DNA of 16,792 bases from a virus (IMGVR_UViG_2859810971_000005), one strand, 5' to 3'; shown: positions 2,553 through 8,884, counted from the stretch's first letter. Translations and numbers: made by a program. The notes: generated from the sequence alone by a model not told the origin.

Positions 2553-3269
2553 TTACACCCCGCTAAATTCTTCCAGTTTCTGGCGGTGGCTGTCGCTTAT
2601 ATCAAAAGCAAAATCCTCATGCTCTGCCTGGAATGTACCAAACGCCATCAGCGCCGCTACGCTCGGGTCTATCTTGTTCGGTGATTTTTTCTTGTTCGGC
2701 TTGATATTGGCGTTCGCGTCACTCTGCATCACGACGTTACTCATCGACCAAGACAACACCGGATCGCCACGATGCACAATCACCCTGCGGTTAACAAAAA
2801 CTTCGAACGATTTCGCCGCCGGACTGAATCTGAGGTAGGTTTGCGGGAACGGCTCCACCTCAAAACCAGCCCCCTGTAATTGCGTCCTGAGATGCGTGGC
2901 GTTCCACGTATCAAAGCCCACCAGCCTGATATTAAATTTCTCCGCATCCTGCATGATGTCATCTCTGATCCGGTCGTAATCAATGCAGTCACCTGGCGTT
3001 GTGCGTATCCAGCCCGCTTTAGCCCACTGGCGATAGACAGCGCGGTTTTTATTGGCGGGGTTCTGTAGCTGGAACTCCGGCAGATAATGACGGGAAATCA
3101 GCATAATGGTTTTACCGACCGGAAAGGCATAGCATACGCTGGAAATATCGCTGGTTGATGATAAGTCCAGCCCCGCGTAACACTCCTGACCGTGTAAATC
3201 TTCCTCCGTGAACGTTCCGGCACACTCAGCCCATGCACCATTACCCATCCACGGGTAGTCCCCTGACAC
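2553..3269 (-). CDS. terminase large subunit, C-terminal nuclease-domain fragment (frameshifted terL)
   Basis: 238-aa ORF with the RNaseH-like nuclease signature (YAGLDLSSTSDISSVCYAF). It lies in a different frame from the upstream ATPase fragment and overlaps it by 172 nt; a TAA sits immediately upstream in this frame. Confidence 0.85.
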   Translation of the reverse strand: MSGDYPWMGNGAWAECAGTFTEEDLHGQECYAGLDLSSTSDISSVCYAFPVGKTIMLISRHYLPEFQLQNPANKNRAVYRQWAKAGWIRTTPGDCIDYDRIRDDIMQDAEKFNIRLVGFDTWNATHLRTQLQGAGFEVEPFPQTYLRFSPAAKSFEVFVNRRVIVHRGDPVLSWSMSNVVMQSDANANIKPNKKKSPNKIDPSVAALMAFGTFQAEHEDFAFDISDSHRQKLEEFSGV

Positions 3270-4213
3270 CAGATATTAAATCGCTTTGTCATCATCTCCA
3301 CCCACTGCGACGGAATACCCCGCGCTTTCTGGATGGTTGAGGCCAGTTTTTCACGATCCACGGAAACATCAATATTAGGGTTCGCCTTTATCCACATCGC
3401 CGGATCATCAACCTCGTTTTCGTCGTCCAGTTCGTAAATCAGTACAAAAATTGAATCGTTGACCTCTTCGCCGTCCAGGATCTGGCAGCAATAATCATAG
3501 TGCTGTTTACAGGCTGAAACGACGTTACTGCCCGATGTGGTAATGGCAAATAACAGCCCTTCGGGACGTGCGCCCATCCCCAGCTCAAGCGCGGAATAAA
3601 CGCCGTTATCGGGGTGTAGGTGGTATTCGTCCACGATGGAAAGACTGGGGTTTGTCCCCTCGATGGTTGCCGCTTTTGCTGCCAGCGGCTTTAACAGGCT
3701 GTTGCTTTTCGGGTGTATCACCTTATGCGCCTGAATATTCACCCGCCTGCGTAACGGTCGGGATAAAAGGCACATCTGACGCGCATCATCAAACACGATC
3801 CGCGCCTGGTCACGGCTCACCGCTGCGGTGTAGATATCCTGCTGACCGTTCTCCATAATCAGAAACCAGTTAGCCAGAATCGCGGCGGTCGTGGATTTCG
3901 CATTTTTGCGCGGCACTTCGATAAAGGCGCTCGTGTATTTGCGCCGTCCGGTGGCCTTAACCTTAAAGCCGAGGATGCACGCAAAGGCGAACTGCTGCCA
4001 CGGCTCCAGCTCAATGGGTCTGCCACGCATCGGTCCTTTTACGTGCGGGCACACCCTGGAAAAGGCAATAAACCGCTCCACAACCTCACGATCGAACGTG
4101 TAAAGGGGGCTTTTAAGGTCCGAAAAGTACCGTTTAACAGCCTGTTTTAACCGTTTACAGGCCGGAATTTTGCCCGTTTTTACGTCTTCTGCGTACTTAT
4201 TCCAGGCGGTCAA
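3098..4213 (-). CDS. terminase large subunit, N-terminal ATPase-domain fragment (frameshifted terL)
   Basis: 371-aa ORF with Walker A-like PRKNAKST and Walker B LSIVDEYH typical of Terminase_1-family TerL. After ...KRFNIW the frame runs into non-terminase sequence; the correct continuation is the 2553-3269 frame. Confidence 0.85.
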   Translation of the reverse strand: MTAWNKYAEDVKTGKIPACKRLKQAVKRYFSDLKSPLYTFDREVVERFIAFSRVCPHVKGPMRGRPIELEPWQQFAFACILGFKVKATGRRKYTSAFIEVPRKNAKSTTAAILANWFLIMENGQQDIYTAAVSRDQARIVFDDARQMCLLSRPLRRRVNIQAHKVIHPKSNSLLKPLAAKAATIEGTNPSLSIVDEYHLHPDNGVYSALELGMGARPEGLLFAITTSGSNVVSACKQHYDYCCQILDGEEVNDSIFVLIYELDDENEVDDPAMWIKANPNIDVSVDREKLASTIQKARGIPSQWVEMMTKRFNIWCQGTTRGWVMVHGLSVPERSRRKIYTVRSVTRGWTYHQPAIFPAYAMPFRSVKPLC

Positions 4214-4568
4214 GCTCGTCCTCTTCTTCTGTTTCCGGTGGATTTTTACGGCGGCTTATCGGGTTAAAACCGAGCAAGGAGGCCATTTTTATCATCACTC
4301 TTTCAGCGTCGGATTTTGCGCTTAATGCGGGGTTTCTGCTCTCGCCGCCCTGACTGTTAACAATGCTGAACCCGCGCGCCGCAAGGTCTGCAACGGCTTT
4401 CCGGTAAATGGAGTAGTTGACGCAATACAGTTCCAGATTGCTCCAGTCGGCGGGGGTCAGGTCTCCCCGTTCCGCAAGCTGCCGCGATTTTTCCCGCCAC
4501 TGCTTCACGGCGATATCATCCAGGTAGGCGGGGTCGGGTTTGTCCTGAAAACGCCCCCACCCCGTCAT
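4197..4568 (-). CDS. terminase small subunit, P27 family
   Basis: 123-aa ORF; ATG at 4566-4568 with GAGG 6 nt upstream; overlaps the terL start by 17 nt. Size, acidic C-terminus and the NPA...LGF region fit P27-type TerS of cos/HNH packaging modules. Confidence 0.75.
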   Translation of the reverse strand: MTGWGRFQDKPDPAYLDDIAVKQWREKSRQLAERGDLTPADWSNLELYCVNYSIYRKAVADLAARGFSIVNSQGGESRNPALSAKSDAERVMIKMASLLGFNPISRRKNPPETEEEDELDRLE

Positions 4569-4577
4569 ACAGCCTCA

Positions 4578-4760
4578 TCAGCGATTGCGGAAACATTCCA
4601 TAACCTCGCGGTCACGGTCGGTTAATCGCTTCGCTGTGATGCGTTCTGCGCGTCCTGACGCTTTATCTTTATGCCCTGTTTCCTGTGTCTTCCATGCGTC
4701 ACGCTGCCTTATAAGTCCACGGATAAGGCGGTTTTGTTCCCGCTCATTCATCAGCGTCAT
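4578..4760 (-). CDS. hypothetical basic protein (60 aa) between HNH and terS
   Basis: ATG at 4758-4760; its TGA stop overlaps the terS ribosome-binding site and its start overlaps the HNH 3' end by 17 nt. The longer 134-aa ORF in the track (to 4982) overlaps HNH out of frame and is probably an over-extension. Confidence 0.4.
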   Translation of the reverse strand: MTLMNEREQNRLIRGLIRQRDAWKTQETGHKDKASGRAERITAKRLTDRDREVMECFRNR

Positions 4761-7606: not shown

Positions 7607-7626
7607 AAGGGGCTTTTTAGCCCCTT
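7607..7626 (-). terminator. intrinsic-terminator-like hairpin between the capsid and protease genes
   Basis: Perfect 8-bp stem AAGGGGCT/AGCCCCTT with a 4-nt loop, followed on the minus-strand transcript by UAGUGUUUU. Sits in the 39-nt gap between the capsid stop (7637) and protease start. Confidence 0.5.
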
Positions 7627-7636
7627 CTGTATGCTG

Positions 7637-7966
7637 TTAATCGTCGTCTTCCGGCAGTGCCAGAATCTTGATCGCGTTCGAATCCACCACGCCACCGCCT
7701 AAATATTTTTGCGTGAAAATTTTGATGAATCCTGGTTCTGTCAGGTTGTCCGGTCTGGTGCGAACACCTGTTTCGTGATCAACAATGTAGTAACCGCGTT
7801 TGAAGTCACCCAGGGCAATAACGTTATCAGGCATAAACTCCAGATATTCGACCGGAAGGCCCAGCAACGTATCAGGATCACCCGCCTGTAAACGGTCGCG
7901 CCAGATATAATCACCGTTCGCGTTCTTCACCTTCTGAAGTTTTGCCGCCGTCGTGGAGTTAACCAC
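7637..7966 (-). CDS. major capsid protein, C-terminal portion (downstream of in-frame TGA)
   Basis: 109-aa reading frame in the SAME frame as 7967-8842, separated only by TGA at 7967-7969. Contains the conserved HK97-fold C-terminal block (NANGDY...ALGDFKRGYYIVDHETGVRTRPDNLTEPGFIKIFTQKYLGGGVVDSNAIKIL). Confidence 0.85.
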   Translation of the reverse strand: MVNSTTAAKLQKVKNANGDYIWRDRLQAGDPDTLLGLPVEYLEFMPDNVIALGDFKRGYYIVDHETGVRTRPDNLTEPGFIKIFTQKYLGGGVVDSNAIKILALPEDDD

Positions 7967-8794
7967 TCAGACCGCGTTTTTGCGGTATTTTTTACGTAAT
8001 GCAAATTTCAGGTCGATCAGCGGGTCCGCAGATGTCCACGCCAGAGATTCGGAAGGTTTAATTACCTGCAACGTACCAAAATCACGCTCTTTGTCGTTCT
8101 TCTCTGCACGGGGTACGGATAAAAAACCTTTTGCTTTTTTGTCACCGTCGCCCACAACCAGATCGCTTTCTTCGGTTTCCGTGAAGGTGTCGCCAATCTC
8201 ACCCGTCAGCCATGAAAGGATGTCCACATCGGAAAAATCCACGATTTCCTGTGTGGTGCGCGGGTACGCATAGACCGGATACAGCTTAATGCTCACCTCG
8301 TTAATCTGCGGGGTGCTGGTCTGTTCGCGTGCCTTACCCTCTTCACCGTGGTTAACGGTCGCACCGCCAGCGGAAACAAGCTGCTTAAACTCGTTGCTGC
8401 TGATTTTCTTCACGGTACAGATGCGGCGCATGGTGGATTCATCCGCCAGCATTCGCATGATTTCGGTGTTCAGTTCAGGGATAACGGTATAACCACCATC
8501 AGCGGGAACGCCTGTACTTAATGCGCGGGTTTCACCGGTCAGAATGTAGTTGCGTAGTTCTGCGGGGTCAGTGGTCTGGCTGCTTTTACCTGGCTTGCTG
8601 CGCTCTTCGTCTGCAATGGCTTCAAGGCGGGAAATGTCTTTATCGAGGGATTCAGCTTTAGCGCGTAATTCGTCAAATTTTGCGCCCTCAGCATCGTTAA
8701 GACTGCGGTTTTCTTTTTCAGCGTTCTCCAGCATGTCGCGCATCTGATTTTTAATGGCGGTTTTCTGCTGGCGTAATTCGATTATTCTCTGCAT
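7967..8794 (-). CDS. major capsid protein (HK97 fold), N-terminal 275 codons ending at a premature in-frame TGA
   Basis: Likely start is ATG at 8792-8794 (AGGA 9 nt upstream; MQRIIELRQQK...); the track's GTG at 8842 is the alternative. Coiled-coil delta-like N-terminus followed by capsid core. Together with 7637-7966 this gives a capsid protein of about 385 aa. Confidence 0.85.
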   Translation of the reverse strand: MQRIIELRQQKTAIKNQMRDMLENAEKENRSLNDAEGAKFDELRAKAESLDKDISRLEAIADEERSKPGKSSQTTDPAELRNYILTGETRALSTGVPADGGYTVIPELNTEIMRMLADESTMRRICTVKKISSNEFKQLVSAGGATVNHGEEGKAREQTSTPQINEVSIKLYPVYAYPRTTQEIVDFSDVDILSWLTGEIGDTFTETEESDLVVGDGDKKAKGFLSVPRAEKNDKERDFGTLQVIKPSESLAWTSADPLIDLKFALRKKYRKNAV

Positions 8795-8884
8795 AAAAAA
8801 AGTCCTGGGGTTAAGTAAGGAACTCCAGGACGCGGCAAACACTCAACCGTTTTTCATAAGGAAATCAGTAATCGCACCGATCGT

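Follow-up and report, generated by a model that had tools for sequence, protein, structure and literature searches.

A capsid-first packaging operon in a decayed EcCIEDL933-type capsid-forming PICI of a Shigella flexneri-type chromosome

Introduction

The viral DNA stretch IMGVR_UViG_2859810971_000005 (16,792 nucleotides, here called the window) carries a head and packaging operon which, read along the minus strand, starts with the capsid gene and ends with the terminase. Why are the genes arranged in this way? The initial annotation, made from the sequence alone, took the order as the reverse of that in HK97-type phages and proposed that a hairpin behind the capsid gene sets the ratio of capsid to packaging enzyme by transcriptional polarity.

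We identify the element as a capsid-forming PICI (cf-PICI) of the EcCIEDL933 type, located next to phoQ in a chromosome of the Shigella flexneri type. EcCIEDL933, from E. coli O157:H7 EDL933, is the prototype cf-PICI (Alqurainy et al., bioRxiv 10.1101/2022.09.08.507074; He et al., bioRxiv 10.1101/2025.02.11.637232). In intact relatives, as shown by others, the island is induced by a helper phage via AlpA. Small T=4 capsids of the HK97 fold are built from the island's capsid, protease and portal proteins, HNH, TerS and TerL cut and package the island DNA at its own cos site, and head closure and the docking of helper-phage tails fall to Ad1 and Hc1. A T=4 capsid has 240 capsid-protein positions, with the portal in place of one penton. 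The segment studied here would be the nine-gene packaging operon of such an island, now decayed.

Results

All nine genes of the packaging module, as well as the integrase, AlpA and a D5 primase, were recognised by Pfam and PHROGs, and the gene identities and the minus-strand order from capsid to orf93 were as first annotated. The major capsid protein gene of the HK97 fold family, a pseudogene in this copy (7637-8794; PF05065), is followed by the genes for the S78 prohead serine protease of the HK97 family (7025-7597; PF04586, 7e-48), the portal protein (5812-7023; PF04860, 1e-89), the SPP1 gp16-like head closure/completion protein Hc1 (5477-5815; PF05521, Phage_HCP; phrog_25; annotated with 112 aa in the E. 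coli locus L001), the gp6-like head-tail adaptor Ad1 (5184-5480; PF05135; phrog_40) and an HNH endonuclease (4744-5184; PF01844), an accessory factor in packaging by HK97-type cos terminases. Then come orf60 (4578-4760; phrog_3173, 7.5e-37), a small conserved ORF of which many loci have one and which is probably the counterpart of the EcCIEDL933 'hypothetical gene 1792', the small terminase TerS of the P27/Terminase_4 family (4197-4568; PF05119) and the large terminase TerL (2553-4213; PF03354 and PF20441). The conserved hypothetical gene orf93 (2258-2539; phrog_1561), located 3' of TerL, had been counted within a module at 2553-8842; it lies outside these limits.

The island extends from about 2.2 kb to the tyrosine integrase at its opposite end (15563-16792, minus strand, Pfam), is flanked by phoQ and measures ~14.5-15.3 kb, of which 0.76 kb is an IS1. 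It is a chromosomal element with an integrase at one end and a size within the range of about 10-18 kb used to define cf-PICIs. Its packaging set comprises the eight cf-PICI components (capsid, protease, portal, an adaptor, a connector, HNH, TerS and TerL; Pfam, PHROGs), with capsid, protease, portal and connectors ahead of hnh-terS-terL as in the cf-PICI organisation. Regulation and replication modules are of the PICI type, namely AlpA (15000-15188, minus strand; PF05930, 5e-18) and a D5-type primase/replicase (10501-12249, minus strand; D5_N, DUF5906, Pox_D5). Among the island ORFs scanned with Pfam and PHROGs, several small ones had no assigned function and none matched a tail, holin or lysis family. 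An HK97-like temperate siphophage (prophage) was rejected on account of the non-canonical gene order and of the tail and lysis genes not found in these ORFs. The classical PICI of the EcCICFT073 type lacks capsid, portal and TerL and redirects helper-made capsids, such genes being 'forbidden' in the SatelliteFinder PICI model; it was rejected because this island has genes for capsid, portal, both adaptors and TerL.

The closest relatives are an S. flexneri locus (L006), to which the island is 99% identical, and, with 97.9% DNA identity, an intact E. coli strain 4 island that lies between phoQ and roxA. The portal and TerL are each 81% identical to those of the locus L007 of Klebsiella pneumoniae ATCC 13883. 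We take ATCC 13883 to be the same strain as DSM 30104, so that L007 would be the studied island KpCIDSM30104. Between the L001-type module and L007, identity is 36% for Hc1 and 63% for Ad1. These values match the 35% and 63% published for Hc1/Ad1 of EcCIEDL933 and KpCIDSM30104 (bioRxiv 10.1101/2025.02.11.637232), and in this pattern the island resembles EcCIEDL933.

The capsid-first order was found in 145 of the 147 informative related loci, from Enterobacterales and Pasteurellales, whereas in the nearest portal clade from tailed phages all 78 loci are canonical, as are HK97 and the two nearest canonical-order phages (L004 and L005). Some of the closest satellite relatives have been deposited as 'phages'. 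The order is also that of the conserved proteobacterial cf-PICI organisation (Alqurainy et al., bioRxiv 10.1101/2022.09.08.507074), and the criteria of a cf-PICI search likewise support it (bioRxiv 10.1101/2025.02.11.637232). The proteobacterial cf-PICI clade as a whole has the fixed arrangement capsid > protease > portal > Hc1 > Ad1 > HNH > orf > cos > TerS > TerL, and capsid first with terminase last is a published, already known hallmark of cf-PICIs. By the standard that the initial annotation had set for its own refutation, its reading is contradicted by the closest relatives, which are satellites and have this order as the norm. True tailed phages, at no more than 37% identity, have the canonical one.

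The order does differ from that of HK97 and the nearest tailed phages, as had been noted, though 'reverse' describes only part of it. Portal-protease-capsid and Ad1-Hc1 are flipped internally, but HNH > TerS > TerL keeps its canonical order. Similarly, the terminase is last when the minus-strand operon is read through, whereas on a cos-delimited map TerS and TerL come first. Counting from cos, the leftmost genes are TerS and TerL and the rightmost is HNH, as in HK97. There are two true differences from HK97: the head genes, downstream of TerL in HK97, here lie upstream of HNH, and portal and capsid, as well as Ad1 and Hc1, are swapped.

Four junctions with ATGA overlaps had been counted, of which only two, portal/Hc1 and Hc1/Ad1, are literally of this form. 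Ad1 and HNH are joined by TGATG, HNH/orf60 and TerS/TerL overlap over longer distances, and protease and portal (TGAtATG) do not overlap.

The non-coding block between HNH/orf60 and TerS is conserved in nearly all loci and collinear with the joined cos ends of HK97, and the record of vB_KppS-Ant is linearised within the same block. According to the literature, cf-PICI DNA has cohesive ends. From its conservation, position and similarity to HK97, we assign the block as a putative cos site.

Defects in the capsid gene, TerL and the TerS/cos region, as well as the IS1, had been missed in the initial annotation. The capsid gene, which probably starts at ATG 8794 as in the relatives (the longest ORF would begin at GTG 8842), contains an in-frame TGA at 7967-7969 (W276*). 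This codon is TGG (Trp) in L001; the Trp is kept in 141 of 145 relatives, and the stop occurs only in the window and in S. flexneri L006. Alignment of TerL to the intact L001 protein revealed a 1-nt deletion in a run of C at ~3255/3256, which separates an ORF with the ATPase domain (3098-4213) from one with the nuclease domain (2553-3269). The near-identical L006 does not share this deletion, which could be strain-specific or a homopolymer sequencing error. A further deletion of ~122 nt (junction ~4533/4534), common to the window and L006 and located between CCCCGCC repeats, has removed the cos core together with the native start and RBS of TerS. The remaining TerS ORF has lost its 5' part and is joined to an in-frame ATG upstream. 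The conserved left cos block GGGGTGGGGG..TTTTCAGGAC is retained at 4527..4568 as a remnant on the minus strand (alignment with L001 and Pmp8), and the closest E. coli copies still have the cos block. In sum, three of the eight packaging genes (capsid, TerS and TerL) are disrupted. The IS1 (12773-13535, minus strand; insA/insB, a multicopy repeat) sits upstream of the module and is missing from L006. With its capsid gene cut by a nonsense codon, TerL out of frame, both the cos core and the start of TerS lost and an IS1 upstream, this copy is predicted to be inert, and as neither capsid nor TerL nor cos is left whole it would be unable to set any stoichiometry.

The hairpin behind the capsid gene was confirmed by terminator scan, fold score and family conservation. 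Located at 7606-7627 on the minus strand, it has the form GAAGGGGCT-AAAA-AGCCCCTTT, is GC-rich, is followed by TTTAGTGTTTT and represents the top terminator-like match of the region. A 61-nt segment containing it folds with -18.6 kcal/mol (z = -3.3; none of 200 shuffles was equal). Hairpins occupy the post-capsid position in 122 of 128 family loci as compared with 76 of 638 control windows (12%). They belong to several unrelated stem sequences, frequently with loops of the UUCG or GNRA type and U tracts. In HK97 a putative terminator is annotated directly 3' of gp5, and L004 and L005 also have GC-rich hairpins after the capsid gene. As HK97-type phages have one too, the origin of the hairpin does not lie in the reordering. 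The U tract of the E. coli/Shigella lineage is short and interrupted, and termination may therefore be weak. The element is most likely a partial terminator or a stabiliser of the mRNA 3' end, judged from its fold and conservation. Either role fits its location directly after the gene for the most abundantly needed protein, and attenuation at this site is plausible.

Upstream of the capsid gene we found a structured leader (8795-9060, minus strand; fold z = -4.2). It ends in a hairpin, GTCCTGG-17 nt-CCAGGAC, followed by seven T residues and located seven nt ahead of the capsid ATG, which is not preceded by a Shine-Dalgarno sequence. Other genera have a hairpin at the same leader position with different stems. 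The leader matched no Rfam family, and the minus strand upstream of the capsid gene showed no sigma-70-like promoter. For cf-PICIs, neither a capsid leader of this kind nor an attenuator is known to have been reported, and in the searchable literature we found no transcript data for any cf-PICI.

Discussion

We consider it highly probable that the segment is the packaging operon of an EcCIEDL933-type cf-PICI, that its gene order is fixed in the clade, and that the copy in the window is inert. The hairpin, most likely a partial terminator or stabiliser, would have come from HK97-type phages and would raise capsid output (~235 copies per head) over that of the downstream genes, needed in 12 copies or in catalytic amounts. 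It is very improbable that the locus is instead no satellite but an HK97-like prophage whose tail and lysis genes were lost and which became scrambled as it decayed. Shigella genomes contain many pseudogenes, and the nonsense codon, frameshift, deletion and IS1 of the window copy would fit such a history. Yet the compact 15-kb layout recurs with intact genes in many genera, near-identical intact copies are known in E. coli, the island has a PICI-type AlpA and D5 primase, members of the clade are satellites that were mobilised in experiments, and identity to true phages does not exceed 37%.

With the satellite nature of the island taken as given, the order may be a neutral by-product of the way in which several recombination events put the founding satellite together from parts of phages, retained only because genes that overlap and are coupled in translation resist reshuffling; we rate this just short of an even chance. 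Several events are needed, since a swap of co-directional portal and capsid together with Ad1 and Hc1 is impossible by a single inversion. The junctions are tight, and portal, capsid and TerL have different nearest phages, all with only 33-37% identity. Moreover, the three cf-PICI lineages have three organisations (bioRxiv 10.1101/2022.09.08.507074). Such a neutral origin leaves the monotonic copy-number order unexplained, and the hairpin travelled with the capsid gene, so that some expression logic was retained. The order would be adaptive if capsid-first had evolved so that one transcript, attenuated at the hairpin and decaying thereafter over the tightly coupled genes, yields ~235 capsid proteins to 12 portal/adaptor subunits and few terminase molecules, which we regard as somewhat unlikely. 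Portal and adaptors are 12-mers, and the copy numbers required fall steadily along the operon (T=4, 240 positions). It is the same in nearly all loci, the hairpin is kept in 95% of them, often with the loops and U tracts described above, the post-capsid hairpin and cos are the only non-coding gaps of the operon, and the genes after the hairpin overlap or abut. Invariance within one clade is, however, equally predicted by common descent, post-capsid hairpins also occur in HK97 and the nearest canonical phages, where portal and protease are upstream, and the window copy is non-functional. Firmicute cf-PICI lineages have other orders (bioRxiv 10.1101/2022.09.08.507074), so a satellite capsid operon can work without being capsid-first. 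Sequence alone does not distinguish neutral from adaptive origin. That order, post-capsid hairpin and structured leader jointly form a satellite-specific expression programme is an unlikely reading of these features, offered tentatively; if true, one helper-triggered transcript, attenuated once, would give ~20:1 capsid to portal/adaptor/terminase.

Among known systems, EcCIEDL933 shares the nine-gene packaging operon with the window, a likeness read through the L001-type module (97-100% protein identity to the window) and the published identities. The window differs in its capsid nonsense codon, TerL frameshift, ~122-nt deletion of cos and the TerS start, and IS1. KpCIDSM30104 and the 'phage' record vB_KppS-Ant (LR881103) have the same order, cos block and post-capsid hairpin, with 81% identity to the window for portal and TerL and 84% for TerS. 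They differ in the capsid (only 65% identical) and Hc1 (only 36%), in the capsid leader sequence and in the accessory genes, and they are intact and mobilisable. HK97 (NC_002167) has the same families of TerS, TerL, portal, S78 protease, HK97-fold capsid, Ad1, Hc1 and HNH, the HNH-cos-TerS-TerL arrangement, a similar cos architecture and the putative terminator after the capsid gene. Its order, in contrast, is TerS-TerL-portal-protease-capsid-Ad1-Hc1-tail, its capsid is T=7 and it has tail and lysis genes. The cf-PICI proteins are only ~30-37% identical to their best matches among other tailed phages. The cf-PICIs of Firmicutes (the Bacillus/Clostridium/Staphylococcus and Lactococcus/Enterococcus groups) encode the same head and packaging functions and lack tail genes, but are of independent origin and place either portal-protease-capsid or HNH-TerS-TerL first.

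Identity of the island and its packaging module

The window starts with a complete phoQ gene (1–1461, plus strand) and ends with a gene for a tyrosine integrase (15563–16792, minus strand). Nearly all genes between them lie on the minus strand, including a few small unknown ORFs and the genes for AlpA (15000–15188) and a D5-type primase (10501–12249). An IS1 element (insA/insB, 12773–13535) separates the DUF4222 gene from the alpA-proximal genes and thus lies in the primase–alpA interval. An intact island (L001), 97.9% identical to the window, occupies the phoQ–roxA interval of E. 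coli strain 4. The closest sequence found (99.1%) is a Shigella flexneri chromosome (L006, strain SFBU1023), and 1405 of 5426 complete E. coli genomes have module matches.

At the sequence level, the window has all defining features of a capsid-forming phage-inducible chromosomal island (cf-PICI). The Klebsiella pneumoniae ATCC 13883 locus (L007) is taken as KpCIDSM30104, since ATCC 13883 is presumably DSM 30104. Between L001-type islands and L007, identity is 36% for the head closure protein (Hc1) and 63% for the gp6-like adaptor (Ad1), which matches the published values of 35% and 63% for EcCIEDL933 and KpCIDSM30104 (He et al., 10.1101/2025.02.11.637232) and assigns the window to the EcCIEDL933 type.

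The gene identities and minus-strand order of the initial annotation were confirmed call by call with Pfam and PHROGs: capsid (PF05065), S78 prohead protease, portal, Phage_HCP/Hc1, Ad1, HNH, a 60-codon ORF (orf60, phrog_3173), a Terminase_4 small subunit (TerS), the large subunit (TerL) and a 93-codon ORF (orf93, phrog_1561). The tight coupling of these genes is also real, but ATGA overlaps are present at two junctions (portal/Hc1 and Hc1/Ad1), not at four as had been counted. The Ad1/HNH junction is TGATG, the protease/portal junction is TGA-T-ATG, and HNH/orf60 and TerS/TerL overlap by 8–17 nt. Shine–Dalgarno strength, compared gene by gene, revealed no clear gradient. The PHROG alignment of orf60 (4578–4760), which by gene numbering probably corresponds to EcCIEDL933 gene 1792, begins at residue 4. 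Its translation may in fact begin at the second ATG (4751), which would then form a ATGAATGA overlap with the HNH stop codon.

Gene order in satellites and phages

Scanning one genome per species with a portal seed yielded 70 loci, distributed over Shigella, Klebsiella, Enterobacter, Kosakonia, Erwinia, Pantoea, Yersinia, Xenorhabdus, Photorhabdus, Pasteurella, Haemophilus and other genera, and IMG/VR contributed 80 more. The co-directional order capsid–protease–portal–(Hc1)–Ad1–HNH–(orf60)–TerS–TerL was found in 145 of 147 informative loci; in the other two, the best Hc1 match lies downstream of TerL. The order, described initially as the reverse of the canonical one, is unusual in comparison with HK97 and the nearest tailed phages, but it is the rule within its own family. 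In HK97 the order is TerS, TerL, portal, protease, capsid, Ad1, Hc1, tail genes; HNH occupies the right end, beside cos. The best tailed-phage matches for portal (Klebsiella phage ST13-OXA48phi12.4, 34%) and capsid (Pseudomonas phage VW-6S, 37%) belong to phages with this canonical order, as do 78 of 78 IMG/VR loci of the nearest phage portal clade, and the phages nearest in TerL carry that gene at their genome's left end. The IMG/VR scan with a mixed portal alignment returned cf-PICI-clade loci only; tailed phages were sampled by a second scan seeded with one phage portal.

Protein identity is at least about 57% inside the cf-PICI clade; with phages it falls abruptly, to no more than 37%. The few ‘phage’ records that lie above this gap, for example vB_KppS-Ant (LR881103.1) and Pasteurella ‘phage’ Pmp8 (OR544139.1), are 15–16.5 kb long and have the same satellite layout. 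A 766-aa gene following TerL in vB_KppS-Ant (2036–4333 of that record) is annotated as tape measure protein and is located in the variable accessory region. Pmp8, which has the cf-PICI layout in 15.3 kb, carries a gene with the annotation ‘tail terminator’ (14914–15321 of that record) immediately upstream of its capsid gene; this gene may be wrongly annotated or be an additional head–tail joining gene. Xenorhabdus genomes contain several copies or fragments of this satellite family each (L021–L023, L030, L032, L046, L066, L072 and others), many on short contigs, with four loci in X. anantnagensis XENO-2.

The capsid-first order is an already published cf-PICI signature, so its rediscovery adds little. 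Capsid-forming PICIs were defined from EcCIEDL933; their order differs from that of the helper HK106, two firmicute lineages have other orders, and mutation established that each module gene is needed for transfer, the helper supplying tails only (Alqurainy et al., bioRxiv 10.1101/2022.09.08.507074). Cohesive cos ends, a T=4 capsid offering 240 positions to the capsid protein, and tail specificity set by the adaptor/connector have been described, with the same gene order listed as a search criterion (He et al., 10.1101/2025.02.11.637232). The SatelliteFinder model has the same 11 core components. No cf-PICI transcript data were found in the literature naming EcCIEDL933.

Hairpin following the capsid gene

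The hairpin reported after the capsid gene is real (7627–7606) and is the best terminator-like site in 9 kb. The 61-nt segment containing it folds with −18.6 kcal/mol, lower than 200 of 200 shuffles. In 122 of 128 loci a GC-rich hairpin lies no more than 50 nt from the capsid stop codon, compared with hairpins in 76 of 638 coding-sequence control windows, and in 86 loci at least four T are present in the following 8 nt. The stems are unrelated across several lineages (GGGGC/GCCCC, GGAGGAGGC/GCCTCCTT, GCGTTCCTG/CAGGAGCGC), and many loops are of the UUCG or GNRA type. Near-universal occurrence relative to controls, with unrelated stems among lineages, indicates that the structure is under selection. 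The Shigella/E. coli lineage has a short, interrupted U tract. We infer that the hairpin is a partial terminator or a 3′ stabiliser. As a putative terminator is annotated in HK97 directly behind gp5, i.e. also following the capsid gene, and both nearest canonical-order phages have a strong hairpin there, it did not arise with the reordering.

RNAalifold gave no consensus structure for a MAFFT alignment of 87 unique post-capsid segments, in which variable loops and spacing misalign the stems; conservation was scored instead locus by locus with the coding-region control. With Rfam, neither the window nor L007 had a match at gathering thresholds, and the surroundings of the capsid leader and the hairpin had none at E ≤ 1.

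Capsid leader and transcription signals

The capsid leader (8795–9060, minus strand) is highly structured (z = −4.2). Its last hairpin (GTCCTGG...CCAGGAC), followed by T7, stops 7 nt short of the capsid ATG, and a Shine–Dalgarno sequence is absent. Other genera have different stems at the same position (GGTTTCACG...ACGGAAACC; CTGCATG...CATGCAG). Such a leader could act as a translational operator, as an attenuator or as a processing site. Both the leader structure and the post-capsid hairpin are conserved across genera and provide cheap, concrete targets for studying the capsid:portal stoichiometry of a 15-kb satellite.

Upstream of the capsid gene, a sigma-70 scan detected no promoter on the minus strand; overall, shuffles gave more sites than the real sequence. 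An accessory ORF (9095–9397) close upstream of the packaging operon is flanked by identical terminator-like hairpins (AGCCGGAGCAATCCGGCT plus a T run; 9421–9438 and 9058–9075, minus strand). The twin hairpins suggest an insulated accessory cassette and a separate promoter for the packaging operon. In Pseudomonas aeruginosa, AlpA is a processive antiterminator; by analogy, the island AlpA might allow RNA polymerase to pass the island hairpins. Against PDB chains, it gave a generic ‘AlpA family’ match only and none to antiterminator complexes.

Candidate cos site and lesions of the window copy

In nearly every locus, a non-coding block separates HNH/orf60 from TerS: GGGGTGGGGG..TTTTCAGGAC, about 25 nt, and ACCGCCCGCCCCCTCAAATTTTTAYGCACGGYAATTTTTTTGAAAATAA. 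Joining the right end of the HK97 record to its left end gives a sequence collinear with this block (G run, ACCGCCGCC, AAA|GTTTGAATTT, GATTTTTTT). The vB_KppS-Ant record is linearised exactly in this block and lacks 69 nt of it that are present in the near-identical L007. From this conservation, collinearity and linearisation we infer that the block represents the cos site of cf-PICIs and occupies the position canonical for HK97. On this reading, the cohesive ends would lie inside CCCCCTCAAATTTTT.

In the window, about 122 nt of the orf60–TerS interval are missing, with the junction at ~4533/4534 (region ~4527–4568) between CCCCGCC repeats. This segment, which appears to be exactly the conserved HK97-like cos core, is present in all eight closest E. 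coli copies and is carried by 379 E. coli genomes. Its loss removes the native TerS start codon and ribosome binding site, leaving a chance in-frame ATG at 4568 and a fused TerS ORF. The junction is shared with L006, which has an empty IS1 site.

The capsid frame contains an in-frame TGA (7967–7969, W276*) where L001 has TGG. Of 145 family loci, 141 have this Trp, and the stop is restricted to the window and L006; its occurrence in that independent assembly identifies it as a genuine lineage mutation. Programmed read-through was rejected because relatives carry TGG and the stop is confined to the Shigella lineage. In TerL, one C is lost from a C run at ~3255/3256, splitting the gene into two overlapping ORFs (ATPase and nuclease). 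As L006 lacks this deletion, it is strain-specific or a homopolymer sequencing error. Judged by its sequence, the window copy is a decaying cf-PICI, a dead satellite which should neither be counted as functional nor used to deduce expression logic.

Origin of the order and comparison with HK97

The initial annotation suggested that capsid-first order and the hairpin together set the ratio of capsid to packaging enzymes through transcriptional polarity, a proposal that the present results support in part. Selection for copy-number stoichiometry would account for an order that runs strictly from highest to lowest copy number and for the retained hairpin, at which termination of about 90–95% would fit the need for ~235:12. 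The three organisations in three independent cf-PICI lineages argue against necessity (10.1101/2022.09.08.507074), and we consider such selection rather unlikely. We rank it below a frozen accident, the order being left over from the founding recombinations, to which we give slightly less than an even chance. A scrambled dead prophage was rejected, as the compact layout recurs intact across many genera.

Read from the candidate cos, the cf-PICI map is TerS–TerL–orf93–attP–int–alpA–rep–capsid–protease–portal–Hc1–Ad1–HNH–orf60, that of HK97 TerS–TerL–portal–protease–capsid–Ad1–Hc1–tail...lysis–HNH. The terminase is thus ‘last’ only in a prophage-style linearisation. The description as ‘reverse of canonical’ holds in that the head genes are rearranged, but is imprecise, since with cos placeable between HNH/orf60 and TerS the terminase end of the operon would be canonical. 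One inversion cannot account for the rearrangement, as all genes are co-directional. The cf-PICI differs from HK97 in having its head genes upstream of HNH, with portal and capsid swapped and Ad1 and Hc1 swapped, whereas its candidate cos, similar to that of HK97, would lie in the same place, between the HNH side and TerS.
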